From contig NC_011979.1 in the NCBI RefSeq assembly GCF_000022265.1, positions 270,001 to 302,000 on the forward strand: a stretch of DNA of 32,000 nucleotides, given 5' to 3'. Source of the DNA: Geotalea daltonii FRC-32 (lineage in GTDB: Bacteria > Desulfobacterota > Desulfuromonadia > Geobacterales > Geobacteraceae). The notes below the pieces were generated by a model. It saw only the letters and a program-made list of their open reading frames with translations. It had not been told where the DNA came from and searched no databases. The translations under genes and the position numbers were made by a program. Every line of letters begins with the position of its first letter. The stretch's first letter is position 1. Below, piece after piece: positions 14,662 to 31,976 of the stretch.

Positions 14662-14685
14662 GAACAAATAACCAAGATGTAAAGT

Positions 14686-14765
14686 CCCCCTTTGAGAAAG
14701 GGGGATTTAGGGGGATTTGATTCATATTGCCCAAATCCCCCCAACCCCCCTTTTATAAAGGGGGG
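14686..14765. repeat. Cluster of three C-run/G-run hairpins (REP-like) between bamE and bamF
   Basis: CCCCCTTT-gag-AAAGGGGG (14686-14704). GGGGGATTT-14 nt-AAATCCCCC (14710-14741). CCCCCCTTT-tat-AAAGGGGGG (14745-14765). Tandem GGGGGATTTA / GGGGGATTTG. The core GGGGGATT(T)GA recurs at 27741 and, inverted, at 31044. Confidence 0.55.
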
Positions 14766-14792
14766 AGCTATTGTTTAGAAAGGAGAACGAGC

Positions 14793-15560
14793 ATGACAGC
14801 AGCCCTTGAATTTAAACCGCGGGTCGTCGGTTTTTTGTGCACGTGGTGAGCGTACGGCGCTGCCGACCTGGCTGGAGTTTCCAGACTGCAATATACAACT
14901 GAAACAAAGATCATCCGCGTGATGTGCTCGGGCAGGGTCGACCTGGACTTTGTGCTGCGCGCCTTTTCCCGGGGTGCCGACGGGGTATTCATTGGTGGCT
15001 GCTGGCTTGGCGAGTGCCATTATGTCACCGAAGGCAATTACGATGCCCTGAGCATGATGCACCTGGCCAAGAGAGTCCTCGAAGAGGTAGGAATCAATCC
15101 CGACCGGCTGCGTCTCGAATGGGTTTCCGCCTCAGAGGGGATGCGCTACGCCGAGGTGATGAACGACTTCGGTCGCAGACTGAAGGAACTGGGGCCGATC
15201 GGTTCCAGCGAGGGCATAGAAAAAGAGGCCCTGAAGCTGAAATTTGCCGCAGTGAAGAAGATACTCCCCTTCCTCAAGCTGGTTGAACGGGAGCGGTTGC
15301 GGGTACGGTTTAAGACGGAAGAAGAATATACGAAATTCTTCAGTAGCCCGGAGGTGGATGCCCTGATCCGTGGGGTGATCGCCGAAAATCTGGCCATCAG
15401 CCAGATTCTCACGCTCCTGGGGAGAAAACCGCTGACGACCAGGCAAATTGCCGAGGTGTTGAGGCTGGAGCCGGCGGAGGTGGCAAGATGCCTCAATGTT
15501 TCATCGCAACAGGGCTTGATCCGCTACAACGAAACCGAGAAACGCTATGCCGTCGCCTGA
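14793..15560 (+). CDS. bamF: BamF-type MvhD/FlpD-like subunit, selenocysteine-containing (TGA at 14847-14849 read as Sec)
   Basis: The ATG at 14793 (AGGAGAA SD at about 14781-14787) is in frame with ORF 14919..15560. Read-through gives MTAALEFKPRVVGFLCTW-U-AYGAADLAGVSRLQYTTETKIIRVMCSGRVD, which matches the MvhD signature CxWCxYxGADxAG with Sec at the second Cys. Sec in BamF is reported for G. metallireducens (from memory). Confidence 0.8.
14855..14886 (+). promoter_or_regulatory. Candidate SECIS hairpin(s) downstream of the bamF UGA
   Basis: CGGC-gcu-GCCG (14855-14865) starts 6 nt after the UGA. GGCUGGA-guu-UCCAGAC (14870-14886) has one G/A mismatch and a GUU apical loop. I cannot tell which one, if either, is functional. 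Confidence 0.3.
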
Positions 15561-15602
15561 TCCGACCGGTGACGGGGCTAAATGAGAAAAGAGGGCACGA
15601 CT

Positions 15603-16055
15603 ATGGACAGGGACAGGATTGACCAGATTATCGACACCCATGGCTGCAAAGCCAGTTCGCTCATTCAGATATTGATTGCCATCCAGAGTGAAAACCACTG
15701 GCTCCCCAAGGAAGTTCTGGAACGGGTCAGCGAGCGACTGAACGTACCCATGAATCAGATCCAGCATATCACCACCTTTTACAAGTCGTTCAGCCTGGTC
15801 CCCAAGGGGCGTCACGAGGTCCATGTCTGCATGGGAACCGCTTGCCATGTCCGTGGTGCCCAGGGTGTTCTCGATACCGTTGAAGATGTGACCGGTATCA
15901 AGCCGGGAGAGACCGACGTCGATCTCAAGTTCAGCCTGGAAACCGTCAACTGCATCGGCTGCTGTGCCCTCGGACCGGTAATGGTGGTGGATGGCGATTA
16001 CCACGGTAACCTGGCCGCAACCCAGGTGGAAGACGTGTTGAAAACCTACGAGTAA
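15603..16055 (+). CDS. bamG: BamG-type NuoE/HoxE-like [2Fe-2S] subunit
   Basis: CMGTACHVRGA...CIGCCALGP thioredoxin-like 2Fe-2S motif. Start at MDRDRIDQ is preceded by AAGAGGG; an in-frame ATG at 15582 is an alternative. Confidence 0.85.
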   Translation: MDRDRIDQIIDTHGCKASSLIQILIAIQSENHWLPKEVLERVSERLNVPMNQIQHITTFYKSFSLVPKGRHEVHVCMGTACHVRGAQGVLDTVEDVTGIKPGETDVDLKFSLETVNCIGCCALGPVMVVDGDYHGNLAATQVEDVLKTYE

Positions 16056-16064
16056 GGGAAGGCC

Positions 16065-17978
16065 ATGGCAAAGATAAATTCGACTGTCGAGTTCGAAGCA
16101 TTGAGGAAGGAAATCCTGTCGTCCAGGGATCCGAACCGCCCCTGCATTGCCGTATGCACCGGCTCCGGTTGCCTTGCCCTCGGCGCCGCCAAACTGGTGG
16201 CCGCCTTGAAAAGCGAAATCAAGGAGCAGGGGCTGGAACAGAGGATCGAAGTAAGGGAAACCGGTTGTCCCGGCTTCTGCGAGCGGGGTCCCCTGATCGT
16301 CATCTACCCGGAGGAGACCTGCTATCTCAAGGTGCAGCCGACTGACGCCAAAGAGGTCATCGCCAGCGTCATGGAGAAGAAGATCATCGACCGGCTGCTC
16401 TATGTGGATCAGGTGACCGGTGAGCGGGTCGTCCATGAGATGGATATCCCCTTTTACAAGAATCAGTTGCGGCTTTTGATCGGCAACAACATCAAGCTCG
16501 ACCCGACCAGCATCGACGACTACATCGCCATCGGCGGTTACACTGCCTTGGAAAAAGCTGTCTGCCAGATGAAGCCGGAGCAGGTGGTGGGGCTGGTGAA
16601 GGAATCGGGGCTTCGGGGGCGCGGTGGTGGCGGCTTTCCCTCGGGGAACAAGTGGGAATTCACCCGCAATGCACCTGATCCGGTGAAATACGTGGTTGTC
16701 AACGCCGACGAGGGTGACCCCGGGGCATTCATGGACCGGGCGCTGTTGGAGGGGAGCCCCCATGCGGTCCTGGAAGGGCTCATTATCGGCGCCTATGCCA
16801 TCGGCGCCCATGAAGGTTTTCTCTACGTGCGTCAGGAATACCCCCTGGCCGTGCACAATATCACCCTCGCCATCCAGAAGGCTGAGGAATATGGCTTCCT
16901 GGGGAAAAATATCCTGGGATCGGGCTTCGATTTCACGGTGGAGGTGGCCCAAGGGGCAGGCGCCTTTGTCTGCGGCGAAGAAACAGCCTTGATCCGCTCC
17001 CTGGAGGGGAAGACGGGGGAGCCGAAACCGAGACCCCCTTTTCCTGCCGTGAGGGGGCTGTGGAACAAACCGACCAACATCAACAACGTGGAGACCTGGG
17101 CCAATATTCCTCTTATTATCAACAAGGGCCCGGCCGCCTTCGCTTCCGTAGGCACCGGGGGGAGCAAAGGCACCAAAATATTCTCCCTGGTGGGCAAGGT
17201 CAAGAACACCGGGCTGGTTGAAGTGCCCATGGGGATAACCCTGCGGGACATCGTCTACAAGATCGGCGGCGGCATTCCCGGAGAGAAGAAGTTCAAGGCG
17301 GTGCAGACCGGTGGCCCGGCGGGGGGGTGCATGCCCGAATCGCTCCTGGACATGGAGGTCGATTTCGACCAGCTCACCAAGGCCGGCTCCATGATGGGGT
17401 CCGGCGGCATGATCGTCCTCGATGAAGAGACCTGCATGGTGGATTTCGCCAGGTTTTTCCTCTCCTTTCTGGCAGAAGAGTCATGCGGCAAATGTGTCCC
17501 CTGCCGCGAAGGCATTCAACAGATGCTTGCCATCCTGAATGACCTGACCCATGGGAAAGGGAAAAAGGGTGACCTGGAGCTTCTGGAGCAGCTTACCGAG
17601 GTTTCCAGCGCCTCGTTGTGTGCCCTGGGCAAGGGTGCACCGAACCCGGTGCTGAGCACCCTGAAACATTTCCGGGATGAATATCAGGCCCACATGGAGG
17701 GGAAATGCCCTGCCTTCACCTGCAAGAGCCTCTTCTCCTACTATATTGAGCCGGAGAAGTGCCAGGCATGCACGAGCTGCGGCAAAAAATGCCCGGCAGG
17801 GGCGATTGAAGGGGGAAAGAACCAGATCCACATGGTCGACCAGGCAAAATGCACCAAGTGCGGGGCCTGCCTGCAGGCCTGCCCCCCCCGCTTCGCAGCG
17901 GTGACGCGGATACTGGGCGAGGTAGTCCCACCCCCATTGCCGGAAGAGGCGAGAACAATAGTCAGGGGGAGCAAATAG
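16065..17978 (+). CDS. bamH: BamH-type NuoF/HoxF-like FMN/NAD(P)H subunit with N-terminal 2Fe-2S domain and C-terminal 2x[4Fe-4S] domain
   Basis: GRGGGGFPSGNKW (NuoF nucleotide/FMN motif), ESCGKCVPCREG (N3-type cluster), C-terminal CQACTSCGKKCP and CTKCGACLQACP. AAGGGAAGG SD. Confidence 0.9.
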   Translation: MAKINSTVEFEALRKEILSSRDPNRPCIAVCTGSGCLALGAAKLVAALKSEIKEQGLEQRIEVRETGCPGFCERGPLIVIYPEETCYLKVQPTDAKEVIASVMEKKIIDRLLYVDQVTGERVVHEMDIPFYKNQLRLLIGNNIKLDPTSIDDYIAIGGYTALEKAVCQMKPEQVVGLVKESGLRGRGGGGFPSGNKWEFTRNAPDPVKYVVVNADEGDPGAFMDRALLEGSPHAVLEGLIIGAYAIGAHEGFLYVRQEYPLAVHNITLAIQKAEEYGFLGKNILGSGFDFTVEVAQGAGAFVCGEETALIRSLEGKTGEPKPRPPFPAVRGLWNKPTNINNVETWANIPLIINKGPAAFASVGTGGSKGTKIFSLVGKVKNTGLVEVPMGITLRDIVYKIGGGIPGEKKFKAVQTGGPAGGCMPESLLDMEVDFDQLTKAGSMMGSGGMIVLDEETCMVDFARFFLSFLAEESCGKCVPCREGIQQMLAILNDLTHGKGKKGDLELLEQLTEVSSASLCALGKGAPNPVLSTLKHFRDEYQAHMEGKCPAFTCKSLFSYYIEPEKCQACTSCGKKCPAGAIEGGKNQIHMVDQAKCTKCGACLQACPPRFAAVTRILGEVVPPPLPEEARTIVRGSK

Positions 17979-17980
17979 CC

Positions 17981-18595
17981 ATGAGCGAACTGGTCTTACA
18001 AATAGATGGCAGAGAGGTTACGGTAAAGGAAGGTGCGACCATTCTCGAAGCAGCCGAGAGCGTGGGAATAGCCATTCCCACCCTTTGTCACCACCACAAG
18101 CTGGAACCCTATGGGGGGTGCCGGGTCTGCTCAGTGGAGGTGGAAGCCAACGGCAGGACGATGGTCGTTGCCGCCTGCACCTATCCGGCCGAAAAAAATG
18201 TCGTCGTGCGCACCCGGAGCGAAAAGCTTTCCAGGATTCGCCAGGCGCTGGTGGAGATGATGCTGGCCCATGCACCCGATTCGGAAAAACTGGTGGCGTT
18301 GGCTGAGGAGTATGGCGCAGACCGGGATCGGTTCAAAAGAAACCAGTCCTTCTGCATTCATTGCGGCCTTTGTGTACGCTACTGCACCGAGGTGAAGAAG
18401 AAAAATGCCCTGGGGTTCATCGACCGGGGCGCCAAAAAGAGGATCTGCTTCATTCCGAAAATAGCGGCCGCCGAATGCTGGAAGTGCAGGGAATGTTTTC
18501 CCCTCTGCCCCACCTCTGCGCTCCAGGCTGCCTTCGTTCTCACTGAAGGGATGACCGCGGCTGTACCGACTGAAGCGGCCGAATCCGGACGGTAA
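17981..18595 (+). CDS. bamI: BamI-type NuoG N-terminal-like FeS subunit
   Basis: Start at MSELVLQIDGREVTVKEGATILEAA, 2 nt after the bamH stop, with a GGGGGA SD. The 44-codon upstream extension of ORF 17849 overlaps bamH. 2Fe-2S ferredoxin fold (CHHHKLEPYGGCRVC) and CIHCGLCVRYC. Confidence 0.85.
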   Translation: MSELVLQIDGREVTVKEGATILEAAESVGIAIPTLCHHHKLEPYGGCRVCSVEVEANGRTMVVAACTYPAEKNVVVRTRSEKLSRIRQALVEMMLAHAPDSEKLVALAEEYGADRDRFKRNQSFCIHCGLCVRYCTEVKKKNALGFIDRGAKKRICFIPKIAAAECWKCRECFPLCPTSALQAAFVLTEGMTAAVPTEAAESGR

Positions 18596-18710: not shown

Positions 18711-19508
18711 TCAGTTACGGGCAAAGGAGAGGGCGGTCCGCACGTTGCCAACGAGATTAATGAGCCGCGGACCGATGTCGCTTTCGATCAGCTGCCGCGA
18801 CAGCTGAAAGGAGGCGCCGCTGCAGCTGAATCCCATGATGGTGCCGTCCTCGAGAACCAGGGGGACGGCAACGGCGTGCACTTCGGTGCGCCAGTTGCCG
18901 AGGCTGGTGCAGTAGCCGAACTGCCGGTACTCTGCCATTGCCTGGTCGAACCCTGCCTTTACCGTTGGCCAGTTCTGCTCGTCGCTGACCTTGATCTCTT
19001 CCAGCAGCTCGTTCCGCTCATCCTCGGGCATGACGCAGAGGTAGGCCCTCCCCATGGAGGTGGTGGCGATGGGAATCTGCGAACCCACATCCAGCTGCAC
19101 CGTGAGAGTCGAAGTATTGCGATAGGTATCGATGTAGATCAAGTTCAGATGGTCGCGGATGCCCAGGTTGACCGACGCTTGGGTGTGCTCGGCCAGGGCC
19201 TGCATCAGGGGGCGGGAAATGCGGCGAATATCCATCTGCCCCAGTTTTGCGTAGCCGAGGGCAATGACCGCGTTCCCCAGTGAGTATTTGTTGGCGGATT
19301 TGCAGTAATTGAGATAGCCCAGCTCCGAGAGGGTGTAGGTCAGCCGGGAAACGGTCGATTTGGGGAGCTTCGTTCTCTTGGCAATGTCCTGGTTTCCCAG
19401 ATAACGGTCGCTGGGATTAAAGCAGCTGAGCACTTCAAGCCCCCGTGCCAGCGCCTCCACAAACTTGCGCGCTTCCGCCGGGTCTCTGGTTTTCCGGTCC
19501 ATGGTCAT
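18711..19508 (-). CDS. IclR-family transcriptional regulator (PcaR/PobR-like)
   Basis: Start taken at MTMDRKTRDP, preceded by AAGGGAGA; an in-frame ATG at 19571 is an alternative. wHTH (LGNQDIAKRTKLPKSTVSRLTYTL) plus an IclR effector domain. Confidence 0.85.
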   Translation of the reverse strand: MTMDRKTRDPAEARKFVEALARGLEVLSCFNPSDRYLGNQDIAKRTKLPKSTVSRLTYTLSELGYLNYCKSANKYSLGNAVIALGYAKLGQMDIRRISRPLMQALAEHTQASVNLGIRDHLNLIYIDTYRNTSTLTVQLDVGSQIPIATTSMGRAYLCVMPEDERNELLEEIKVSDEQNWPTVKAGFDQAMAEYRQFGYCTSLGNWRTEVHAVAVPLVLEDGTIMGFSCSGASFQLSRQLIESDIGPRLINLVGNVRTALSFARN

Positions 19509-19618
19509 GCCGATTGTCTCCCTTGCTTGCAGATTTTGTGGTGCCGAAGCATCTGGTTCATAGAGTTGCATAATGGGGGGATGGTGTCAACAGCAATCAA
19601 TGTAAAATGGTAGAAGAA

Positions 19619-20111: not shown

Positions 20112-21269
20112 ATGAGATTCGGACTTACTGACGAGCAGAAGATGATGCAGGACATGGCGCGGGATTTTGCCCAGAAGGAAATCTTGCCCACACTCAAGGA
20201 AGACGAGGCGAACCACACCTTTCGCCCGGAGCTGGTGAAGAAGATGGCCGATCTCGGCTTCTTCGGCTGTGCGCTCCCCGAGGAATACGGCGGTAACGGC
20301 TGCGGGTTCCTGGAGTCGGTCATCATCGCCGAACAGCTTGCCACGATTAGCGGGTCATCTCGCCTGCCTCTCAACATGCAGAACATCGGTCCATCCATCA
20401 CCGTTAACCAGTTCGGCACCAAGGAGCAGAAAGAGCGCTTCATTCCTAAATGGGTCAGTGGTGAATATTTCGGCTTTTTCGCCATCACCGAGCCCAATTC
20501 CGGCTCCGACGTCATCAGCATGGGAACCACTGCCATCGATCGTGGCGATCATTGGGAACTGAACGGCCAGAAGATGTGGATTTCCAACGCCCATCTGGGT
20601 GACTACGGCCTGGTCTATGCCATGACCGACAAGAGCGCCAAGTACAAGGGAATGACCTGCTTCATCGTCAACCTGAAAGGGAATGAGGGGATCATCACCG
20701 CCCCCATCGAAACCAAGCTGGGGCTCCACTGCGCCCCCACCGGCGAGATATCCTTCAGCCAGGCGAAGATTCCCAAGGACTCGGTCCTGGGTGAAGTGGG
20801 CCAAGGTTTTCAGATCTGCATGTACCAGTTGAACAACACCCGCATCAGCTGCGCCGCCGGAGCGCTGGGCATCGGTGGCGGCGCCATCGAGGCTGCCATC
20901 GGTTACGCCAATGAGCGGACCCAGTTCGGTAAGAAGATCGGCTCCTATCAGATGATTCAGGCCTCCATCGCCGAAATGGTGGCGGAGCACGAGGCGGCCA
21001 AGCTCCTCGTCTACCAGGCGGCCTGGCTCAAAGACCAGGGACTGCCCAACCAGTACCAGACCTCCATGGCTAAGCTTTTTGCCTCCGAGGCGGCGGTGCA
21101 TGCGGCAACCGAGACCATGAAAATCTTCGGCAGCTACGGCTTCTCCACCGAGTACCCGGCAGAGCGCTGGCTGCGTGATTCCATGTCGCTCCGGACGGTG
21201 GAAGGGACGAGCAACATCCAGAAGACGATTATCGCCGGCATGGCCCTCGGGGATACGGTCAATCGCTAG
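20112..21269 (+). CDS. Acyl-CoA dehydrogenase (FAD). Substrate unclear: candidate non-decarboxylating glutaryl-CoA or alicyclic acyl-CoA dehydrogenase
   Basis: 385 aa, ACAD signatures FAITEPNSGSD and catalytic-base region VEGTSNIQKTIIAG, AAGGAGA SD. The substrate assignment rests only on the GcdA-like neighbour. Confidence 0.9.
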   Translation: MRFGLTDEQKMMQDMARDFAQKEILPTLKEDEANHTFRPELVKKMADLGFFGCALPEEYGGNGCGFLESVIIAEQLATISGSSRLPLNMQNIGPSITVNQFGTKEQKERFIPKWVSGEYFGFFAITEPNSGSDVISMGTTAIDRGDHWELNGQKMWISNAHLGDYGLVYAMTDKSAKYKGMTCFIVNLKGNEGIITAPIETKLGLHCAPTGEISFSQAKIPKDSVLGEVGQGFQICMYQLNNTRISCAAGALGIGGGAIEAAIGYANERTQFGKKIGSYQMIQASIAEMVAEHEAAKLLVYQAAWLKDQGLPNQYQTSMAKLFASEAAVHAATETMKIFGSYGFSTEYPAERWLRDSMSLRTVEGTSNIQKTIIAGMALGDTVNR

Positions 21270-21280
21270 TAAGACAGGCA

Positions 21281-21313
21281 GAAGGCTGAAGGTGATTCAT
21301 ATCCTCAGCCTTC
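21281..21313 (+). other. Intercistronic hairpin (possible attenuator or mRNA stabiliser)
   Basis: GAAGGCTGAAGG-tgattcatat-CCTCAGCCTTC, followed by an AT-rich stretch without a clean T-run. Confidence 0.3.
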
Positions 21314-21356
21314 AGAACAGATATTTATTACCTGATTCATTGAAAGGGGTTTTGTT

Positions 21357-23114
21357 ATGTCACGCAAGCAAACGCCGCTTCGTCCCTACTTCGAGAAAAT
21401 GCCGGAGATTGGCAAGGCGCTCACTGAGGCAGAAATAAAGCGCGCTCAGGAAAACATCGATCTGGTTCGGGAGCAGGAGAAAATTCTCGCCCAGGAGGCG
21501 GAGCGGGTGAAAAACGCGGGAATCCCCGCCAAGAAGGTCCACGAGCGTGGTGGGATGACCATCTACGACCGCCTGGAATACCTGGTGGATCCCGGCACCT
21601 GGTCTCCATTGCACTCCCTTTACAATCCCCGTGACAACGAAGAGGGATGTACCGGGGTGGTAAACGGCATCGGCAAGATCGAGGGGAAGTGGGCGGTCAT
21701 TATCGGTTTTGACAACAAGGTTATGGCCGGCGCCTGGATTGCCGGGCAGTCGGAGAATATCCTCATGGTCACTGACATGGCCAAGCGGCTCAACGTGCCG
21801 CTGGTCTGGCTGACCAACTGCAGCGGCGTCAAGCTCATGGAGCAGGAGACGGTCTACGCTGGCCGTCGTTCCAGCGGGGCACCGTTCTACCGCCATGCGG
21901 ACCTGAACCATCTGGGAATTCCCATCCTGAACGCCATCTACGGCACCAATCCGGCCGGAGGCGGCTACCAGGGGATCAGCCCCACCATCCTGCTGGCCCA
22001 TGAGGGAGCCAACATCGCTGTCGGCGGCGCCGGCATCGTCGGGGGGATGAATCCCAAGGGGTATATCGACGCCGAAGCGGCACGGGCGTTGATCGACGGA
22101 ACCAAGAGCTTCAAGGCCAAGGATCCGGGGCGGGTTGAGACCCACTTCGACCATACCGGCTATTTCCGTGAGGTTCACGACAGTGAAACGGGGGTGTTGG
22201 ACGGCATCAAGGATTATATGCGCATGATGCCCGCTTACGATCCGGCCATGTTCCGCGTTGCCCAGCCTGCTCCGCCGAAGTTTCCGGTGGAGGATCTGAA
22301 CATGATCCTCCCGGCGAACCAGAAGCGCCCTTACGACGCTATTCAGATTCTGTCCCGGCTCACCGATAACAGCGAGTTCATGGAATATCGCCCCGATTAC
22401 GGGCGTGAAGTCTTTACCGGCATTGCCAAGATCGACGGCTACCCGGTCGCCTTCATCGGCAACCGCCAAGGGGTTTTCCCCGGTTATCCGGAATATGCCA
22501 ACGGCGCCTATCCGGCCGTGGGGGGCAAGCACTACCGCCAGGGGCTCATCAAGCAGGGAGAATTCGTCACCCTCTGCGGCCGTGATAACCTGCCCATCGT
22601 CTGGCTGCAGGACACCACAGGTATCGACGTGGGCGATCTGGCCGAAGAGGCGGAGCTGCTGGCCCTTGGCCAGTCCCTGGTCTACTCCATCGAGCAGACC
22701 GAGCTTTCCATGATGTGCATCGTCCTGCGGAAGGGTACGGCGGCGGCTCACTACATCATGTGCGGCCCCCAGGCCAACAACAACAATGCCTTCACCCTTG
22801 GTACGCCTCTCACCGAGATCTACGTCATGCACGGCGAGACCGCTGCCGCTGCTTCCTACGCCCGGCGGCTGGTCAAGGAAGATGAGGCGGGCAACGACCT
22901 GACCCCGACCCTGGACAAGATGAACCAGATGATCCAGGATTACGTGGACAAGTCACGGCCGGCATATTGCGCCAAGACAGGCTTCGTTGACGAGATCGTC
23001 TCGCTGCCCGACCTGCGCAAATACATACAGGCCTTTACCGGGGCCAACTACCAGAACCCACGATCGATAACGCCGGTGCATCAAATGCTTTTGCCGCGCA
23101 TCATCAAGGGATAA
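21357..23114 (+). CDS. gcdA: Glutaconyl-CoA decarboxylase alpha-type carboxyltransferase (GcdA-like)
   Basis: 585 aa, collinear with Acidaminococcus fermentans GcdA as I recall it (587 aa): PYFEKMPEIGKAL, IYGTNPAGGGY, GGAGIVGGMNPKG, LPIVWLQDTTGIDVG, LRKGTAAAHY, YQNPRSITPVHQMLLPRIIKG. Confidence 0.88.
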   Translation: MSRKQTPLRPYFEKMPEIGKALTEAEIKRAQENIDLVREQEKILAQEAERVKNAGIPAKKVHERGGMTIYDRLEYLVDPGTWSPLHSLYNPRDNEEGCTGVVNGIGKIEGKWAVIIGFDNKVMAGAWIAGQSENILMVTDMAKRLNVPLVWLTNCSGVKLMEQETVYAGRRSSGAPFYRHADLNHLGIPILNAIYGTNPAGGGYQGISPTILLAHEGANIAVGGAGIVGGMNPKGYIDAEAARALIDGTKSFKAKDPGRVETHFDHTGYFREVHDSETGVLDGIKDYMRMMPAYDPAMFRVAQPAPPKFPVEDLNMILPANQKRPYDAIQILSRLTDNSEFMEYRPDYGREVFTGIAKIDGYPVAFIGNRQGVFPGYPEYANGAYPAVGGKHYRQGLIKQGEFVTLCGRDNLPIVWLQDTTGIDVGDLAEEAELLALGQSLVYSIEQTELSMMCIVLRKGTAAAHYIMCGPQANNNNAFTLGTPLTEIYVMHGETAAAASYARRLVKEDEAGNDLTPTLDKMNQMIQDYVDKSRPAYCAKTGFVDEIVSLPDLRKYIQAFTGANYQNPRSITPVHQMLLPRIIKG

Positions 23115-23127
23115 TTCATGCACCAGG

Positions 23128-23158
23128 AAAGCCCCGGACGACACTGCCGGGGCTTTTT
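23128..23158 (+). terminator. Rho-independent terminator/attenuator after gcdA-like gene
   Basis: AAAGCCCCGG-acgacactg-CCGGGGCTTTTT, a GC stem followed by a T5 run, 14 nt after the stop. Confidence 0.7.
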
Positions 23159-23228
23159 GCCCATCGCCTGCTGAACGGTCATTTTTGAGTTGTTATTACT
23201 TTTAAACATATTGTGAAAGGAGCTGCAC

Positions 23229-25304
23229 ATGAGTAAAGGAAAGAACCCACTCGGTATTACCGAAGTCGTCCTCAGGGACGCCCATCAGTCCCTCTTCGCC
23301 ACTCGTCTGCGTCTGGACGACATGCTTCCCATCTGTGAAAAACTGGATAAGGTGGGCTACTGGTCCATCGAGATGTGGGGGGGAGCCACCTTTGACTCCT
23401 GCATCCGTTTTCTCGGCGAGGACCCCTGGGAGCGCCTCCGCAAACTGAAGCAGGCCATGCCGAATACTCCGCAGCAGATGTTGTTCCGTGGCCAGAACAT
23501 CCTTGGTTATCGCCATTATGCCGATGACGTGGTGGAGAAGTTCGTGGAGCGGGCGGCCTTCAACGGTATCGACGTTTTTCGCGTCTTCGATGCCATGAAT
23601 GACCCCCGCAACCTGGATACGGCCATCAAGGCGGTCATCAAGCAGGGTAAACATGCCCAGGGGACCATGTCCTATACGGTCAGCCCGGTGGATACCATCC
23701 CCAAATGGGTAGATCTGGCCAAGCGCATCGAAGACATGGGCTCCCATTCACTCTGCATCAAGGACATGGCCGGTCTGCTCTCCCCCTATACCGCCTATGA
23801 GCTGGTGAAGAAGCTGAAGAAATCGATCAACATCCCGATCCACATGCAGTGCCACGCCACCACCGGCATGTCCACCGCCACCTATGTCAAGGCCATTGAA
23901 GCCGGCGTTGAAAATGTCGATACCTCCATTTCTTCCATGAGCATGACCTACGGCCACTCCGCTACCGAGGCTCTGGTGGCCATCATGTCCGAGACGGACC
24001 AAGCGACCGGCCTCGACATGTCGCTTCTGCAGGAGATTGCCGACTACTTCACCGTGGTGCGGAAGAAATATGCAAAATTCGAAGGGTCCCTCAAGGGTAT
24101 CGATGCCAGGATCATCATGGCACAGGTGCCGGGGGGCATGTTGACCAATATGGAGAGTCAGCTCAAAGACCAGAATGCCGGCCACAAGATGGATCAGGTG
24201 CTGGCCGAGATCCCCAAGGTACGCGAGGATCTGGGCATGATCCCGCTGGTCACCCCCACTTCGCAGATCGTCGGCACCCAGGCGGTCATCAACGTCCTGA
24301 CCGGCGAGCGCTACAAATCCATGACCAAGGAGACCGCTGCAGTTCTCAAGGGTGAGTACGGCGCCACCTCCGCACCGGTCAATAAGGAGCTGCAAGCGAA
24401 GGTCCTGGCCGGGGCCGAGCCGATCACCTGCCGTCCGGCAGACCTGCTTGACCACGAGATGGACAAGCTTACCGCCGAGCTGCGTGAACTGGCGAAGGGC
24501 AAAAACCTCAAGTTCGGGGATCATGAGGTGGAGGATGTCCTCACCTATGCCCTTTTTCAGCAGGTGGGGCTCAAGTTCCTGGAGCATCGTGATAACCCAG
24601 ACATGTTTGAGCCGGTTCCCACCGGGGAAGAGGCCGCTCCGGCAGCCAAGGCCGCAGCTCCTGCGGTTGCAGGTGGAGAAACTTTCACCGTCACCGGCGG
24701 CGGTCAGACCTTTGTCGTGCAGGTTGCCAAGGCCACCGGCGCCGCAGCAGCCGCCGCGGCAGCTGCCGCCAATGCCGCAGCAGGGGCCGCAGCCGCAGCC
24801 CCGGCCGCTTCAGCCGGCGGATTCGATATCGTCTCTCCCCTGGCGGGCAATGTCTGGAAGATCGAGGTCGACCCCGGCCAGGAGGTCAAGGAAGGGGATC
24901 TGCTGCTGATCCTTGAGGCAATGAAGATGGAGAACGAGATTTTTGCCGACCGGGACGGCATCGTCGGCACGATCCACATCCAGGAGGGCAATGCCGTGGA
25001 TATCGGCCAGCCCCTGGTGACCCTGATCAGCGACGCTGCCGCACTGGTTGCAACCGCTGCAGCTCCGGCCGCTGCAGGCGCGGCAGCACCCAAAAACGGC
25101 GTCACCGCTCCCCTTGCTGGCAATGTCTGGAAAATCGAGGTCAAACCGGGGCAGAAGGTGCAGGAAGGGGATCTCCTCCTCATTCTCGAAGCTATGAAGA
25201 TGGAGAATGAAATATTTGCCGACAAGGACGGCATCGTCGGTCAGCTCCTCATTCAGGAAGGGCATGCCGTTGACATAGGACAGGTCCTGCTGACTCTGGA
25301 CTAA
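23229..25304 (+). CDS. OadA/PycB/transcarboxylase-5S-type pyruvate carboxyltransferase fused to two tandem biotinyl carrier domains
   Basis: N-terminal TIM-barrel CT domain ([28 protein letters not shown]). Ala-rich linkers. Two copies of [31 protein letters not shown], with biotinyl-Lys codons at 24924-24926 and 25197-25199. Confidence 0.9.
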
Positions 25305-25346
25305 GCTTTTGACCGATCTTCATTCGTTTCACAAATCCAAACTGAA

Positions 25347-25377
25347 TCACCCCCTGATCCGTCGGGTCAGGGGGTGA
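25347..25377. other. GC-rich hairpin after the 5S-BCCP gene
   Basis: TCACCCCCTGA-tccgtcggg-TCAGGGGGTGA, an 11-bp stem with no T-run. Confidence 0.35.
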
Positions 25378-25432
25378 GAAGCCCGACATTGACTCCATAA
25401 ATATGCAGCAGTAAGGGCTGAGGAAGATAACG

Positions 25433-27700
25433 ATGAGCAAAAAATCCGCAGCACTTGAATACCACTCGACCGGCCGCAAAGGGAAGATCGAAGTCATTGC
25501 CACCAAACCTTGCCAGACCGCACAGGACCTGTCTCTTGCCTATTCACCCGGAGTGGCTGAGCCCTGTCTGGCCATTGAGCAGACGCCTGAAGATGCATAT
25601 CAGTACACGGCCAAAGGTAACCTGGTTGCGGTCGTCTCCAACGGTACCGCGGTCCTGGGCCTGGGCAACATCGGGGCTCTTGCCGGAAAACCGGTCATGG
25701 AAGGGAAAGGGGTGCTCTTCAAGCGCTTTGCGGACGTGGACGTCTTCGACATCGAGCTGAACAGCGAAAATCCGGATGAGATCATCCGCGCCGTGCAACT
25801 GCTCGAACCGACCTTTGGCGGGATCAACCTGGAGGACATCAAGGCTCCCGAATGCTTTTACATCGAGGAAGAACTGAAGAAGACCATGAATATCCCGGTC
25901 TTCCATGATGATCAGCACGGTACGGCGATCATCTCCGCAGCCGGTCTCATCAATGCCCTGGAACTGGTTGGGAAAAAGATAGAGGATATTCGCCTCGTGG
26001 TCAATGGAGCCGGTGCCGCAGCTATTGCCTGTGCAAACCTGGTAGTCTCCCTTGGGGTCAAGCGGGAAAACATAATCATGTGCGACACCAAGGGGGTCAT
26101 CTACAAAGGCCGCACCGAAGGGATGAACAAATACAAGGAGCATTTCGCCGTCGATACGCCGCTGCGCACCCTTGAAGAGGCCGCCGTTAATTGTGATGTC
26201 ATGTTCGGACTTTCCTCCAAGGGAGCCTTTACCCCCGAGATGGTGCGCACCATGGCGGTCAATCCCATCATCTTCGCCATGGCTAATCCCGATCCGGAGA
26301 TCACCCCCGAGGAGGCCCGTAAGGTGCGCGGTGATGTACTGATCGCCACTGGCCGCTCCGACTACCCAAACCAGGTCAACAATGTGCTCGGCTTTCCCTT
26401 CATCTTCCGCGGGGCACTGGACGTGCGGGCTACGACCATCAATGAAGAGATGAAAAAAGCTGCCGTCTTCGCCCTGGCGGAGCTGGCCCGCGAGGAGTGC
26501 CCCGATTCGGTCTGCCGTGCCTACGGCAACGTCAAGTTCAGCTTCGGCCGGGACTATATCATTCCCAAACCCTTCGATCCGCGGGCGCTGATGCGTGTTG
26601 CACCGGCCATTGCCAAGGCGGCCATGGATTCAGGGGTGGCCCGGCAGCCGATCCCGGATATGGACAAGTACGTGGAGGCGCTGGAATCCCTGCAGGGAAA
26701 AGCAAAAGAAACCTTGCGCATGATCATCAACAAGGCGAAGTGCGATCCCAAGAGCATCGTCTTCCCAGAGGGCGAGAACGAGAAAATCCTCCGTGCCGCA
26801 CAGGTGCTGGTGGAACAGGGGATTGCACGGCCGATTCTTCTGGGGAGTGAAAAGAAAATCCGTGCGACCCTGCAGGAGCTGGGGATTGACCTGAACGGCG
26901 GGGTGACGATCATCGACCCGGCCAACTCCGACAAGGCCAATGGCTATGCGGACGAATTTTACCGCTTGCGGCAGCGCAAGGGGCTCACCCTCTCCGAATC
27001 CCAGCGCCTCATGTCCCGCAAGTCCCGTACCCATTTCGGGTGCATGATGGTGCGTCAGGGTGATGCCGACACGCTCCTGGCGGGTATTGACGCCAACTAC
27101 GCTGAGACCATCCGCCCCGCCTTGCAGGTGATCGGCAAGCAGGAGGGGCTCTCCAGTGTCCATGGCCTCTACATCATGGTCTTCAAAAAAGGACTCTACT
27201 TCCTGGCCGACACCACCGTCTGCATCGACCCAAATGCCCAGGAACTGGCGGAAACGGCCATTCTGACTGCTGAAATGGCACGCATGCTTGAGGTTGAGCC
27301 GAGTGTCGCCATGCTTTCCATGTCCAACTTCGGTTCCGTGCGCCATCCCCAGGCAGACAAGGTGAGACTGGCGGTTGAACTGGTCAAGGAAAAGGAGCCC
27401 GGGCTGATCATTGACGGTGAGATGCAGGCGGATACGGCGGTGGTTACGGAAATTCTGCAGTCGAGCTTTCCCTTCTCCACCCTGAAGAAAGCGGCGAATA
27501 TCCTCATCTTTCCCGACCTGACTTCAGGAAACATCGCCTATAAGCTGCTCAATAAACTGGGAGAGGCAGAAGCCATCGGCCCGATCCTGATGGGGATGAA
27601 CAAGCCGGTCCATATCCTGCAGCGTGGTGATGACGTCATGGATATCGTCAATATGGCTGCCATCGCAGTAGTGGATGCCCAGAACAATGGCAGACCATAG
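25433..27700 (+). CDS. maeB: NADP-dependent malic enzyme, MaeB type (malic enzyme domain plus C-terminal phosphotransacetylase-like domain)
   Basis: 755 aa. [34 protein letters not shown], then a PTA-like C-terminal half ([15 protein letters not shown]...). Confidence 0.93.
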
Positions 27701-27769: not shown

Positions 27770-28615
27770 ATGCATTCGACAGCCGCATATTTCGATACCG
27801 TAGAAGCCCATTACGGACATAACGACCTTGAAACCACAATCTTGAACGCACTGGTTGCAGCCGGAAAAGATCCCGATCGTCTCAAGGCTGAAGACCTGGC
27901 CCCGATCGATCAGTTTCATGTTCGTGGTTTGAAGGCGACCTCTCAGCTTGCAATGGATATCAAGCTTGACAGGGATATGCAGGTGCTGGATCTGGGGAGT
28001 GGCCTTGGTGGGGCTTCCCGTTATCTTGCAAAGGAGTTTGGCTGCAGTGTCGTGGGCCTGGATTTGAATGCCCAGTATTGTCAGGTTGCCACCACTCTCA
28101 CCCGGCGTCTCGGGCTTGACTCGCGGGTAACATTCATCCAGGGAAACGCCCTTGAGATTCCTTTTCCAGACGGGTCGTTCGACCTTGTCTGGACCCAGCA
28201 CATGACCATGAACATCCCGGACAAATCCAGCTTTTATCGGGAAGTTTATCGTGTGCTTAAGCCGGGGGGGCGACTCGCCATGTATGATATTCTTGCCGGT
28301 CCGGGGGGAGAGGTGCTGTTTCCGGTTCCTTGGGCGAGGGATACCGCCACCAGTTTTCTGGTTGCTTCCCAGGTACTGGTGGACACGATAACCGAGACAG
28401 GGTTCGATATACATATCTGGCGAGACGTGACGGAAGCGGCCCGTCTATGGACCCGGGCAACGCAGGAAAGACTCTACCTCAATCCCGGCTTGTTGGGTCT
28501 GCAACTCTTGCTGGGCACGGACTTTCGCAAAATGGTGCACAATCAGTTTCTTAACCTGCAACAGGAGCGTATTGCCCTGGTTGAAGCTGTCGTCCGCCGC
28601 CCGCTGCTGGCATAA
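27770..28615 (+). CDS. Class I SAM-dependent methyltransferase (unknown substrate)
   Basis: 281 aa, motif I VLDLGSGLGGASRYLA, post-I VVGLDLN, LKPGGRLAMYD. AAGAGGAG SD. Confidence 0.8.
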   Translation: MHSTAAYFDTVEAHYGHNDLETTILNALVAAGKDPDRLKAEDLAPIDQFHVRGLKATSQLAMDIKLDRDMQVLDLGSGLGGASRYLAKEFGCSVVGLDLNAQYCQVATTLTRRLGLDSRVTFIQGNALEIPFPDGSFDLVWTQHMTMNIPDKSSFYREVYRVLKPGGRLAMYDILAGPGGEVLFPVPWARDTATSFLVASQVLVDTITETGFDIHIWRDVTEAARLWTRATQERLYLNPGLLGLQLLLGTDFRKMVHNQFLNLQQERIALVEAVVRRPLLA

Positions 28616-28643: not shown

Positions 28644-28800
28644 GCCAATGCAGACTCAGGGGGGAGTATGAATAAATCAGCAGCGAAAATGGTCCTGCTG
28701 CCCACGCTGAACGATCTGCCTGGTGAAATTGCCCAAGCAGACTCAGGGGGAAGTATGCAGACAACAGCCGAAAAAATGGTCTTGCCGACGCTGAAGGATT
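28644..28800 (+). repeat. 87-bp tandem direct duplication spanning SD, ATG and first codons of the hydratase gene
   Basis: GCAGACTCAGGGGGGAGTATGAATAAATCAGCAGCGAAAATGGTCCTGCTGCCCACGCTGAACGAT (from 28650) versus GCAGACTCAGGGGGAAGTATGCAGACAACAGCCGAAAAAATGGTCTTGCCGACGCTGAAGGAT (from 28737). About 80% identity with one 3-nt indel. Confidence 0.7.
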
Positions 28801-29588
28801 CATCCATTGCTGTGGAGAAGCGGATCGCCGTATTGACGTTGCAGCGCCATGACGTGCGCAATGCACTGACCGGCACGGCCCTGATCGACGATATCGTGCA
28901 GACGGTGAACTGGGTGAATAATGAACCAGAGGTCTCGGTCCTGGTTATCACTGGGGAAGGGACGGCGTTTTCTTCAGGCGGTAACGTCAAGGAGATGCAG
29001 TCGCAAAGCGGGAGCTTTGCCGGATCGCCCATGGAGATTCAGGACCACTACCGGCGTGGAATACAGCAGATTCCACTCGCCCTGCATAAGGCGGAGGTGG
29101 CGGTTATTGCCGCCGTCAATGGCCCGGCCATCGGTGCCGGGTTCGACCTGGCCTGCATGTGTGACATCCGCATCGCTTCAACAAAGGCCCAGGTGGGAGA
29201 GGCCTTCATCAATCTCGGTATCACTCCGGGAGATGGTGGCGCATGGTTCATGCAGCGGCTGATTGGCTATCAGCGGGCTGCCGAGCTGACTTTTACCGGA
29301 AGAATCGTCAAGGCCGACGAGGCGCTGCAACTTGGGATATTCCTCGAAGTGGTGGAGCCGGAGGAACTGATGCCGCGAGCAATGGAACTGGCCGGGCAGA
29401 TTGCCGCCAAGCCACCCCTTACGCTGCGGTTGACCAAACGGATGATGAAACTGGCCCAGCGCAGCGAGCTACCGGATTTTCTCGATTTATGCGCCTGCTT
29501 CCAGACAATGGCCCATCACACGGAGGATCATCTGGAAGCGGTCAACGCTTTCCTGGAAAAGAGACCACCTTCCTACAGGGGGCGATAA
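28755..29588 (+). CDS. Enoyl-CoA hydratase/isomerase (crotonase) family protein
   Basis: Crotonase motifs ITGEGTAFSSGGNVKEM and AAVNGPAIGAGFDLACMCDIRIAS. Start at 28755 (second repeat copy) gives 277 aa, typical for the family. 28668 (first copy, in frame) would add 29 aa. Confidence 0.85.
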   Translation: MQTTAEKMVLPTLKDSSIAVEKRIAVLTLQRHDVRNALTGTALIDDIVQTVNWVNNEPEVSVLVITGEGTAFSSGGNVKEMQSQSGSFAGSPMEIQDHYRRGIQQIPLALHKAEVAVIAAVNGPAIGAGFDLACMCDIRIASTKAQVGEAFINLGITPGDGGAWFMQRLIGYQRAAELTFTGRIVKADEALQLGIFLEVVEPEELMPRAMELAGQIAAKPPLTLRLTKRMMKLAQRSELPDFLDLCACFQTMAHHTEDHLEAVNAFLEKRPPSYRGR

Positions 29589-29834: not shown

Positions 29835-31010
29835 ATGAGTGAAGTTTTTATCGTTGAGTCATTGCGTACGCCGCTGGGATCGTTTGGTGGTGCGCTTGCC
29901 GACGTGGATGCGCCGCGTCTGGCTGCTGCAGTCATCAAGGAGCTGCTGGAGAGAGCGGCTCTCAGTCCCGAAGCTGTGGATGAGGTGATTATCGGTCAGG
30001 TGCTTTCCGGGGGAAGCGGTCAGGCTCCCGCCAGGCAGGCTCTGCGTTATGGCGGCCTCCCCGACTCGGTACCGGCAATGACCATCAACAAGGTGTGCGG
30101 CAGCGGCCTGAAAGCGATTATGCTCGGGGCCGATGCAATACGTCTGGGAGACGCCCACGTTGTGCTGGCCGGCGGCATGGAGAACATGTCCCAGGCACCC
30201 TATGCCCTGCCCAAGGCGAGGAATGGTTTCCGTATGGGGAACGGTGAAGTGGTTGACCTGATGGTCAATGACGGCCTGTTGGATCCATACAGCGGCAACC
30301 ATATGGGGGTCATTGCCGAGGCCAATGCTGCCAAAAACGGCCTGAGCCGTGCCGAGCAGGATGAATTTGCCGTCGCTTCCTATAAAAAAGCTCAAGCAGC
30401 GGTTAAAGATGGCGTGTTCAAAGATGAGATAGTGCCAGTGGTGAAAAAGGGGCGCCAGGGGGAGGTGGTGATTGCCGAGGATGAAGAGCCGCTCAAGGGT
30501 GATATCGGCAAGCTGCCCGGGCTGCGTGCCGCATTTGCCAAAGAGGGAACCATCACCGCTGGTAACGCATCCACCATCAACGACGGCGCCGGGATAGCCC
30601 TGCTGGCATCCGGCGAAGCGGTTAAGAAATACAACCTGAAGCCGAAGGCCCGTTTGCTAGCCTATGCCACCAACAGTATTCATCCCGACCTCTTTACCGA
30701 GGCGCCGGTGGGAGCCATTGAAAAAGCATTGGTCAAGGCAGGGCTCAAGGTGGGTGACATCGATCTCTTCGAGCTCAATGAGGCCTTTGCCACCGTGCCG
30801 CTTTTGGCTATCAAGAAGCTGGGCATCGATCCTGCCCGGGTCAACGTCAACGGTGGAGCGGTCGCCATCGGCCACCCCCTCGGAGCGAGCGGCGCACGCC
30901 TGGCAGCTACCCTTATAAGGGAACTGCACAAGAGGAATGCCCGTTATGGCCTTGCCACCCTTTGCATTGGCGGAGGAGAAGCGGTCGCAGCGATTTTTGA
31001 GCGGGTATAG
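29835..31010 (+). CDS. Acetyl-CoA C-acetyltransferase (biosynthetic/degradative thiolase II type)
   Basis: 391 aa. [11 protein letters not shown] (active-site Cys), [38 protein letters not shown]. Confidence 0.95.
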
Positions 31011-31072: not shown

Positions 31073-31130
31073 AAGCGAGCTACGGCGAGCAGGGGGGTGA
31101 CCATTCTGACTATTGCAGAGGGAGACGAAC

Positions 31131-31976
31131 ATGATCAAGAAAGTAGGCGTTTTGGGTGCGGGGCAGATGGGGAGCGGTATCGCCCATGTCCTTGCGGTAC
31201 AGGAGATAGAGGTAGTCCTTTTCGATATCGCAGAGGATCAACTTGCCAAGGCAGTTGCCGGCATCGAGAAGAACCTGGAACGCCAGGCAAAAAAAGGGGA
31301 AGTGGACAGCGCTTCCATCCCGGCCATTCTCAAACGGATCCATACCACCAAGGTCATGGGAGACCTGTCCGACTGCGACATGGCCATTGAAGCGGTGACC
31401 GAGCGGGAAACCCTCAAGCTGGATATCTTCCGCCAGCTGGACGGCATTGTCAAAAAGGGGGCGATCCTTGCTTCCAACACCTCCTCCATTCCCATTACCC
31501 GTATCGCTGCCGTTACCGGCCGTCCCGACAAAGTGATCGGCATGCATTTCATGAACCCGGTACCGGTGATGAAACTGGTGGAGGTGATCCGCGGCCTGGC
31601 CACCAGCGACGAGACTTTCGATGCTACCGCCGCCCTGGTAGCCAAACTGGGTAAAGAAATGGCGGTTTCAGCCGATTACCCCGGGTTCATCGTCAACCGC
31701 ATCCTCATTCCCATGATCAACGAGGCAGCCTTTGCCCTTTTCGAGGGAGTCGCCACCGTCGAAGATATCGACAAGGCCATGAAGCTCGGCACCAATCAGC
31801 CCATGGGCCCCCTGACCCTGGCCGATTTCATCGGCCTCGACACCTGTCTGGCCATCATGAATGTGCTCTATGAAGGTTTTAAGGATACGAAATATCGCCC
31901 CTGTCCACTGCTGGTGAAAATGGTTGAAGCCGGCTACCTGGGCAAGAAGGCGGGGCGCGGCTTTTACACATATTGA
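31131..31976 (+). CDS. hbd: 3-hydroxybutyryl-CoA dehydrogenase (NAD-dependent 3-hydroxyacyl-CoA dehydrogenase)
   Basis: Start at MIKKVGVLGAGQMGSGIAHV (Rossmann GxGxxG), preceded by GAGGGAGA. HFMNPVPVMKLVE, GFIVNRIL, and a C-terminal PCPLL..GKKAGRGFY, typical of Hbd. Confidence 0.93.
   Translation: MIKKVGVLGAGQMGSGIAHVLAVQEIEVVLFDIAEDQLAKAVAGIEKNLERQAKKGEVDSASIPAILKRIHTTKVMGDLSDCDMAIEAVTERETLKLDIFRQLDGIVKKGAILASNTSSIPITRIAAVTGRPDKVIGMHFMNPVPVMKLVEVIRGLATSDETFDATAALVAKLGKEMAVSADYPGFIVNRILIPMINEAAFALFEGVATVEDIDKAMKLGTNQPMGPLTLADFIGLDTCLAIMNVLYEGFKDTKYRPCPLLVKMVEAGYLGKKAGRGFYTY

Follow-up and report, generated by a model that had tools for sequence, protein, structure and literature searches.

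Pairing of gcdA with a two-carrier oadA gene in Geotalea daltonii: a possible soluble glutaconyl-CoA:pyruvate transcarboxylase

We analysed a 32,000-nucleotide stretch of the genome of Geotalea daltonii FRC-32 (contig NC_011979.1, positions 270,001 to 302,000), here called the window, with respect to two neighbouring genes: gcdA, encoding a carboxyltransferase for glutaconyl-coenzyme A (CoA), and oadA, encoding an oxaloacetate decarboxylase alpha subunit with two biotin carrier domains. G. daltonii FRC-32 is a cultured iron reducer which oxidizes benzoate, toluene and benzene, and the + strand of the window is a benzoyl-CoA pathway region according to the list of open reading frames (ORFs), Pfam and NCBIfam. 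An earlier note, made from the sequence alone, had proposed that the two proteins form a soluble glutaconyl-CoA:pyruvate transcarboxylase instead of a Na+-pumping glutaconyl-CoA decarboxylase. The genes acd, gcdA, oadA and maeB lie on the + strand in that order, and both the acyl-CoA dehydrogenase gene upstream and the malic enzyme gene downstream are where the note had placed them. The features of this region are as follows.

20112-21269, + strand: acd, probable non-decarboxylating glutaryl-CoA dehydrogenase (three acyl-CoA dehydrogenase domains, Pfam).
21357-23114, + strand: gcdA, predicted glutaconyl-CoA:biotin carboxyltransferase of 585 residues (full-length similarity to GcdA in the PDB).
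23126-23162, + strand: G+C-rich hairpin and short T run, 3' of gcdA (-20.8 kcal/mol).
23229-25304, + strand: oadA, 691 residues, with two biotin carrier domains (Pfam HMGL-like, PYC_OADA, two Biotin_lipoyl).
23229-24602, + strand: carboxyltransferase domain of oadA, residues 1 to ~458 (676 bits to Vibrio cholerae OadA, 2nx9).
24603-24800, + strand: Ala/Pro-rich linkers around an association peptide, residues ~483-498 (alignment of 26 OadA proteins).
24801-25025, + strand: biotin carrier domain 1, EAMKM, biotinyl-Lys at about residue 570 (Pfam Biotin_lipoyl, motif position).
25026-25304, + strand: Ala-rich linker and biotin carrier domain 2, EAMKM, biotinyl-Lys at about residue 661 (75% identical to domain 1).
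25433-27700, + strand: maeB, NADP-malic enzyme with a PTA-like C-terminal domain (Pfam malic, Malic_M, PTA_PTB; NF009501, 868 bits).

The highest-scoring NCBIfam model for Acd is NF045552, which describes the non-decarboxylating glutaryl-CoA dehydrogenase of Desulfococcus; the score of 438 bits is below the cut-off of 470. The Desulfococcus enzyme is also the top match in the PDB (3mpi, 348 bits), the next acyl-CoA dehydrogenase reaching 309 bits. The context of the catalytic base, Val-Glu-Gly, is kept as in the Desulfococcus enzyme, with Val and not Tyr ahead of the catalytic Glu. Acd probably makes glutaconyl-CoA from glutaryl-CoA without decarboxylation. A source of glutaconyl-CoA is thus predicted next to gcdA, as this glutaryl-CoA dehydrogenase-like gene lies directly upstream within the benzoyl-CoA pathway region; acd adjoins gcdA in more than 60 loci.

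The GcdA protein aligns over residues 9-584 with the solved GcdA structures 3gf3 and 1pix (715 and 709 bits), while no other carboxyltransferase exceeds 140 bits. Judged by these scores the 585-residue protein is a true, full-length GcdA, in agreement with the earlier assignment. An identity of the 12S/MmdA type was considered and is ruled out by the scores: 82 bits to the 12S subunit 1on3, and 136 bits to the mmdA model TIGR01117, which has a cut-off of 999. Members of the GcdA family transfer CO2 from glutaconyl-CoA to protein-bound biotin, an established half-reaction.

The 691-residue protein had been described as OadA/5S-type with two biotin carriers. The OadA part and the two EAMKM carriers stand, the 5S part does not. 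Its carboxyltransferase domain scores 676 bits with V. cholerae OadA (2nx9), 544 with PycB (5ks8) and 517 with 5S (1rqb), and the protein passes the curated OadA models TIGR01108 (935 bits, cut-off 756.5) and PRK14040 (1174, cut-off 892). It fails the 5S equivalog NF008984 (636, cut-off 827) and the PycB equivalogs PRK14042 (620 versus 1182) and PRK14041 (594 versus 734); the domain-level PycB model PRK09282 is passed at 840 bits. With these equivalog models failed, the outgroup formed by one-carrier OadA proteins and no biotin carboxylase nearby, 5S-type and PycB-type identities are ruled out, and the protein is classified by sequence as OadA-type, not 5S-type.

The catalytic residues Asp17, Lys178 (KDMAG) and His209 and the motif PLVTPTSQ are all kept. 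The metal motif HxH of V. cholerae OadA (His207, His209) appears in the window as H-M-Q-C-H (residues 205-209, 23841-23855). We considered the exchange of His207 for Gln as a mark of an inactive or altered site and dropped it as diagnostic, since it is also found in 13 classical one-carrier OadA proteins, most of them encoded beside oadB; several loci with pump genes have H-M-H-C-H. Transfer of CO2 between biotin and pyruvate/oxaloacetate is an established and reversible reaction of OadA, 5S and pyruvate carboxylase, and the OadA domain of the window is predicted to catalyse it. Both biotin domains group with the carrier of OadA and not with GcdC, which rules out the second carrier as a fused GcdC; domain 2 arose by internal duplication of domain 1. 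They are the sole biotin carriers of the cluster, and two EAMKM motifs are present in 29 of 30 OadA genes adjoining gcdA.

Strict anaerobes whose glutaryl-CoA dehydrogenase is non-decarboxylating are thought to recover the decarboxylation energy by means of a Na+ pump. The window was searched, and the window and related loci were classified, by tblastn with two sets of proteobacterial GcdB/GcdC/GcdD queries. Within the 32-kb window, no match to the beta subunit (GcdB/OadB), GcdC or GcdD was obtained outside the OadA carriers, and a six-frame hydropathy scan revealed an MFS transporter (2633-4009) as the sole polytopic membrane protein. Both results agree with the statement of the earlier note that the 32 kb contain no GcdB/OadB-like or GcdD/OadG-like gene; the absence of GcdB, GcdC and GcdD is established for the window, not for the rest of the G. 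daltonii genome. The window thus encodes none of the further subunits which would complete a Na+-pump holoenzyme (PF03977 beta subunit, separate GcdC, GcdD, OadB or OadG). What it does encode is the gene set of a transcarboxylase: an acyl-CoA and a pyruvate carboxyltransferase with a biotin carrier, and neither a biotin carboxylase nor a beta subunit. The biotin carboxylase signature EMNxRxQVEH was found nowhere within 10 kb of any locus with the gcdA-oadA pair, while it is present beside the PycB-type controls L103-L105.

In the proteobacterial pump operons of two loci (L004, 8324-9889; L005, 11826-13714), GcdC is a bare carrier of 70-71 residues, without the N-terminal anchor and Ala/Pro linker of clostridial GcdC, and GcdD comprises only 52-58 residues.

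The census of related loci (numbered with L) comprised 86 loci, 80 from a GcdA scan of one genome per species (76-97% identity) and six from exact-protein matches. The following types were distinguished.

Two-carrier OadA beside gcdA, no beta subunit, GcdC or GcdD: 20 loci and the window (Geotalea sp. SG265, G. argillaceus, Geomonas oryzae, Georgfuchsia toluolica, Sterolibacterium, Telmatospirillum and many metagenome-assembled genomes).
gcdD-gcdB-gcdC and two-carrier OadA together: nine loci (among them Geopsychrobacter electrodiphilus, Malonomonas and three metagenome-assembled genomes of Geobacteraceae/Desulfuromonadaceae).
Pump genes only: about 30 loci.
Neither partner set within 10 kb: 18 loci (mostly Desulfobulbaceae/Desulfocapsaceae).

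Full 10-kb flanks are present in 10 of the 20 pump-less loci. The gcdA-oadA neighbourhood recurs in 29 loci besides the window, from three bacterial orders and in two gene orders: acd-gcdA-oadA in Desulfuromonadales/Geobacterales, acd-oadA-gcdA in Georgfuchsia, Sterolibacterium and Telmatospirillum. Conservation of the pair in other genomes, which the earlier note had suggested as a check, was thereby confirmed, 20 of the 29 loci being pump-less. In the reverse search of OadA against metagenomes, all genes with at least 84% identity and upstream contig sequence follow acd-gcdA. Next in line, at 61-68% identity, come oadA genes with a single carrier domain, 8 of 13 having oadB directly downstream. 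Judged by this gene order, the pairing is far beyond chance.

Two side observations concern other gcdA loci. Several acd-gcdA loci of Desulfobulbaceae/Desulfocapsaceae have no carrier, beta subunit or OadA within 10 kb (L038, L044, L047, L049-L053, L058, L061-L063, L065, L077), and going by these flanks the partners must be encoded elsewhere. These bacteria use methylmalonyl-CoA:pyruvate transcarboxylase for propionate, and their GcdA might share the carrier of that enzyme. On a metagenome contig (L165, 463-3683), the gene directly downstream of that for a Firmicute-like GcdA (58% identity) encodes a carboxyltransferase of the OadA type (51%) which has no fused carrier; here the two carboxyltransferases may have been paired independently, in another lineage.

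Between gcdA and oadA the earlier note had seen a good intrinsic terminator. The hairpin is real: a 10-bp G+C-rich stem with a 9-nucleotide loop, followed by TTTTTG, forms the hairpin proper (23126-23158), which a consensus terminator scan missed because of the 9-nucleotide loop. It is conserved in the closest relatives (L007, L009, L011, L014 and L026), and its beginning is visible in L067. It is lacking in eight related loci with gcdA-oadA gaps of 0-49 nucleotides (L003, L010, L012, L013, L017, L025, L037 and L040), and in Rhodocyclales, where the order is reversed, the oadA-gcdA gaps are 0-27 nucleotides. As a proof of separate transcription the hairpin is thus weakened, being specific to one lineage. 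The spacing suggests that the pair is operonic in general, the hairpin of the window lineage being at most a partial terminator or an mRNA-stabilizing element.

The pairing bears on the idea that the two proteins have independent functions, the 691-residue protein serving as an oxaloacetate decarboxylase for dicarboxylates, or as PycB with PycA elsewhere, and GcdA working on another carrier. We regard this as very improbable. The hairpin of the window and the passed model PRK09282 are in its favour, and so is a paper on Geobacter (Citrifermentans) bemidjiensis, in which the OadA protein Gbem_1454 was assigned separately to dicarboxylate catabolism, as part of the fumarate/malate pathway in a fumarate-disproportionation model (Aklujkar et al., 2010; BMC Genomics 11:490; PMC2996986). 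Independent functions would leave unexplained why the pairing extends to 29 further loci and to every close metagenomic relative, in two orders and with gaps down to 0-27 nucleotides; the failed PycB and 5S equivalogs and the lack of a biotin carboxylase signature near any pair locus, unlike the PycB-type controls, also argue against it. Moreover, OadA could not turn over without a sink for carboxybiotin, and GcdA has no other carrier in the cluster.

A bootstrapped tree was calculated from concatenated Acd, GcdA and OadA sequences. Loci containing pump genes nest in pump-less clades (bootstrap 71-100%): L012 groups with L010 and L011 (100%), L025 with L003 and L040 (100%), and L014 falls inside the window clade (71%). 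In L014, which has both the pump genes and the two-carrier OadA, GcdA and OadA are 93% and 91% identical to the window proteins, and maeB and a methyltransferase gene are also present. The nesting implies several losses or exchanges of the pump cassette; by this evidence the cassette is dispensable, and the gcdA-oadA pair is the constant part. The acd-gcdA spacer, the site of the cassette in relatives, is only 15-268 nucleotides long in the 17 pump-less loci of acd-gcdA order, and no remnants of gcdD, gcdB or gcdC were found in these short gaps. The ratio of non-synonymous to synonymous substitution rates (dN/dS) between the window and its relatives is 0.03-0.06 for gcdA, and gcdA and oadA together span 0.03-0.07 in the pump-less lineages; on these ratios, both genes are under strong purifying selection.

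The claim that the pair acts instead of a Na+ pump was too simple. The pump-less pair recurs in 20 further loci, but in nine close relatives a single operon contains both gcdD-gcdB-gcdC and the gene for the two-carrier OadA. Pump and fusion protein thus evolved side by side, and the cassette was lost afterwards or is exchangeable. By comparison of the loci, a pump-type OadA with a duplicated carrier can be seen to have joined a gcdDBC-gcdA operon, from which gcdDBC was then, on the same evidence, repeatedly lost or exchanged.

The nine operons raise the alternative that the system is a Na+ pump after all, with GcdA and OadA as alternative alpha subunits which both load the OadA biotins. The carboxybiotin would be decarboxylated, and Na+ pumped, by a membrane beta subunit whose gene, together with one for a small anchor, would lie at another place in the genome. 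The enzymes of the nine operons presumably work in this way. OadA of the window is closest to pump-type OadA proteins whose genes adjoin oadB, and it passes the curated OadA models. Its association peptide, of the type which binds the gamma subunit, is nearly invariant among the 26 aligned OadA proteins, from pump-less and pump-containing loci alike; it departs from the classical OadA signature by the clade-specific form TVTGGGQ(T/S)F and is retained although pump-less loci encode no gamma or delta subunit for it to bind. That partners of gcdA can lie elsewhere is seen in the Desulfobulbaceae-type loci. Nevertheless we consider this alternative unlikely. GcdC and GcdD are missing as well as GcdB, and the cassette is absent from 20 loci and scattered over the tree where it is present. 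Among the best 120 matches to the nearest Geobacteraceae beta subunit, which extend down to 68% identity, none is named from an isolate of Geotalea, Geomonas or Citrifermentans; the names which do occur include Geothermobacter, Malonomonas and Desulfosporosinus, and among these 120 the orthologous beta subunits (at least 83% identity) are named only from Geothermobacter, Malonomonas and metagenome-assembled genomes. Geotalea and Geomonas do occur among the GcdA loci, and Geotalea, Geomonas and Citrifermentans among the named OadA proteins. For the complete genome of G. bemidjiensis, no homologue of GcdB/C/D or OadB/G was reported (PMC2996986).

The position of maeB offers a hint to the fate of the product. 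It lies directly 3' of the two-carrier oadA in the window and in L007-L010, L014, L022, L026, L028, L033 and L067, that is, in 11 of the 31 loci with this oadA, all from a single clade of Geobacteraceae. Of the 54 loci lacking this oadA, none has an adjacent maeB. This co-location suggests cycling between pyruvate, malate and oxaloacetate, with MaeB as a candidate for recycling the C4 acid to pyruvate.

In our opinion soluble glutaconyl-CoA:pyruvate transcarboxylation is the most economical mechanism for the pump-less pair, and we give it an even chance of being correct. Glutaryl-CoA from benzoyl-CoA ring cleavage would be oxidized by Acd to glutaconyl-CoA without decarboxylation. GcdA would then transfer the gamma-carboxyl group to biotin, yielding crotonyl-CoA, and the carboxyl group would be taken up by the two biotins fused to OadA, which are carried on long Ala/Pro arms. 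In pumps, carboxybiotin is decarboxylated by the beta subunit (PMC7145394). Because such a membrane subunit is lacking here, the OadA carboxyltransferase site would pass the carboxyl group from biotin to pyruvate, forming oxaloacetate; with neither a beta subunit nor a biotin carboxylase encoded, this site would be the only catalytic sink for the carboxybiotin made by GcdA.

The net reaction would be glutaconyl-CoA + pyruvate <-> crotonyl-CoA + oxaloacetate. The energy released by decarboxylation of oxaloacetate is similar to that of glutaconyl-CoA. The latter amounts to about -30 kJ/mol (PMC7145394). The net reaction would be Na+-independent and, with both decarboxylations at about -30 kJ/mol each, near equilibrium. 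We infer the coupling of the two half-reactions, with which three observations are consistent: the OadA catalytic domain is strictly conserved, the association peptide is retained without gamma and delta subunits, and maeB is found only beside the two-carrier oadA. The use of the oxaloacetate is speculative. Some may enter citrate synthase and gluconeogenesis, sparing the ATP cost of pyruvate carboxylase, while the stoichiometric excess may return to pyruvate via malate dehydrogenase and the adjacent MaeB, a loop in which the decarboxylation energy would be spent on turning NADH into NADPH.

The same genes could form a soluble decarboxylase which conserves no energy. OadA would then be mainly a carrier and scaffold for GcdA, and carboxybiotin would be lost as CO2 in the OadA site, or pyruvate would act only catalytically, the oxaloacetate being decarboxylated at once, for example by MaeB. 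Malic enzymes do decarboxylate oxaloacetate, and iron reducers with a full tricarboxylic acid cycle may not need the ~30 kJ/mol. We hold this to be improbable, as the whole catalytic domain of OadA and not only the carriers is under strong purifying selection, and as a bare carrier of 70 residues, like that of the pump loci, would suffice as a scaffold. We know of no soluble carboxybiotin decarboxylase activity of OadA-type domains in the absence of a keto-acid partner. The version with catalytic pyruvate contains the same transcarboxylation step as the transcarboxylase which we prefer.

Several points weigh against that transcarboxylase. One oxaloacetate per benzoate is far above the anabolic need, and the recycling loop which is then required is only inferred. 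As the partners of gcdA lie elsewhere in the 18 Desulfobulbaceae-type loci, a distant beta subunit is possible in G. daltonii. Because nine loci hold both the pump genes and the two-carrier OadA, the fusion is not by itself diagnostic of a pump-less enzyme, and OadA could be a second alpha subunit; at the level of equivalogs the protein is a 'sodium-extruding' OadA. Gln replaces His207, which binds metal in the V. cholerae enzyme, but pump-type relatives share this exchange, so that it is not diagnostic. Finally, a hairpin stands between gcdA and oadA in the window lineage.

In its widest form our proposal is that Geobacteraceae and some Rhodocyclales possess a second natural type of biotin transcarboxylase, a glutaconyl-CoA:pyruvate transcarboxylase. 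Two different Na+ pumps would each have contributed their alpha subunit to it (GcdA, and OadA with its carrier domain duplicated), and the membrane module would afterwards have been lost repeatedly. In concert with malate dehydrogenase and the adjacent MaeB, the enzyme would draw on the decarboxylation energy of the benzoyl-CoA pathway either for ATP-free oxaloacetate formation or for NADH-to-NADPH transhydrogenation. This we put forward tentatively, with slightly less confidence than the mechanism alone.

The remaining features of the window belong for the most part to the degradation of aromatic compounds.

5377-18595, + strand: class II benzoyl-CoA reductase-like cluster with two AFOR/BamB-like genes and Fe-S, HdrD-like, HdrA-like, MvhD-like (with a putative selenocysteine) and NuoE/F/G-like genes (Pfam, NCBIfam, in-frame TGA).
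18711-19571, - strand: IclR-family regulator (PcaR/PcaU-like), divergent from acd (Pfam HTH_IclR, IclR_C; TIGR02431, 137 bits, below cut-off).
27770-28615, + strand: class I S-adenosylmethionine-dependent methyltransferase (Pfam; NCBIfam matches below threshold only).
28668-29588, + strand: enoyl-CoA hydratase (Pfam, NCBIfam).
29835-31010, + strand: thiolase (Pfam, NCBIfam).
31113-31976, + strand: 3-hydroxybutyryl-CoA dehydrogenase (Pfam, NCBIfam).

The last three genes are predicted to serve the downstream beta-oxidation of crotonyl-CoA to acetyl-CoA. The methyltransferase gene adjoins gcdA or oadA in most Desulfuromonadales loci (L004, L023, L029, L032, L034, L039, L043 and others), loci with pump genes only included, and its dN/dS of 0.10-0.18 is above that of its neighbours; it is conserved as a partner of gcdA, in no obvious role. 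An IclR gene likewise lies 5' of acd in Geopsychrobacter (L004). An Rfam scan of the window gave no match.

In the reductase-like cluster, tandem AFOR/BamB-like paralogues (5377-7419, 680 residues; 7538-9451, 637 residues) precede a BamC-to-BamI-like set, which is made up of the Fe-S, HdrD-like, HdrA-like, MvhD-like and NuoE/F/G-like genes. The MvhD/BamF-like gene (14793-15560) appears in the mechanical ORF list only as 14919-15560, and its Pfam match begins at profile position 33. Its start is probably at about 14793, and an in-frame TGA at 14847-14849 (FLCTW-U-AYGAADLAG) looks like a selenocysteine codon. The segment 5' of the AFOR/BamB-like pair (723-5023) contains an aryl-CoA-ligase-like gene, the MFS transporter gene and a second IclR regulator gene, and could serve for the import of an aromatic acid and its activation; the ligase resembles (2,3-dihydroxybenzoyl)adenylate synthase (551 bits, under the model cut-off).

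How Geobacter-type iron reducers handle glutaconyl-CoA without pump subunits is a question dating from 2010. If the proposed reaction takes place, it would be only the second natural enzyme with the logic of a transcarboxylase, after that of Propionibacterium, and would show a route from membrane pumps to soluble carboxyl-transfer enzymes. The evolutionary series, from the pump only via the pump with two-carrier OadA to the pair alone, is new in detail. In models of how aromatic compounds are degraded anaerobically in contaminated aquifers, the carbon and energy balances would then be altered, and an ATP-free module for pyruvate carboxylation is of interest to metabolic engineering. The proposal can be tested directly, as G. 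daltonii FRC-32 is a cultured strain with a complete genome.

The closest known arrangement is Gbem_1452-1454 of G. bemidjiensis, where, as in the window, genes for a glutaryl-CoA dehydrogenase of the non-decarboxylating type, for GcdA and for an OadA bearing two domains for biotin attachment form a trio. [quoted passage not shown] The statement of the earlier note that such an enzyme had not been described is thus only partly right. A paper of 2010 already covered how the genes are arranged, the presence of two biotin domains and the idea that the enzymes may cooperate (PMC2996986), while in the searchable literature we found no paper linking glutaconyl-CoA to a transcarboxylase in this sense, and no experiments; on Georgfuchsia and G. 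daltonii, too, nothing came up that went further than this paper. The gene arrangement is therefore already known, and the proposed transcarboxylase is a reasonable extension of it.

With GcdABCD of Acidaminococcus fermentans and Clostridium symbiosum (1pix, 3gf3), the window shares a full-length GcdA, for which the same carboxyl transfer is expected, and close relatives of its gcdA stand in gcdD-B-C-A operons. It differs in the lack of GcdB, GcdC and GcdD and in the fusion of the carrier to the other carboxyltransferase. The architecture of carboxyltransferase domain, association peptide and carrier is that of OadABG (Klebsiella, Vibrio; 2nx9), and oadA-oadB pairs are the nearest outgroup; unlike OadABG, the window OadA has a second carrier, no OadB or OadG nearby, a constant position beside acd-gcdA and the TVTGGGQ(T/S)F peptide. 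PycB of PycAB (Methylobacillus, 5ks8) also combines a carboxyltransferase with a carrier domain (544 bits), but no biotin carboxylase gene is found near any pair locus and the PycB equivalogs are not passed.

In its proposed logic, the pair resembles the methylmalonyl-CoA:pyruvate transcarboxylase of Propionibacterium (12S/5S/1.3S, EC 2.1.3.1; 1on3, 1rqb), a soluble enzyme independent of ATP and Na+, in which two carboxyltransferases act on a shared biotin carrier. The N-terminal peptide of 1.3S, which glues the transcarboxylase subunits together, resembles the association peptide of the window OadA. The parts are different: the acyl-CoA half is GcdA and not 12S (82 bits), the pyruvate half is OadA-type and not 5S (636 versus 827), and the carrier is fused and duplicated, unlike the free 1.3S subunit. 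The window pair would thus be an analogue assembled from Gcd and Oad parts rather than a member of the Propionibacterium family.

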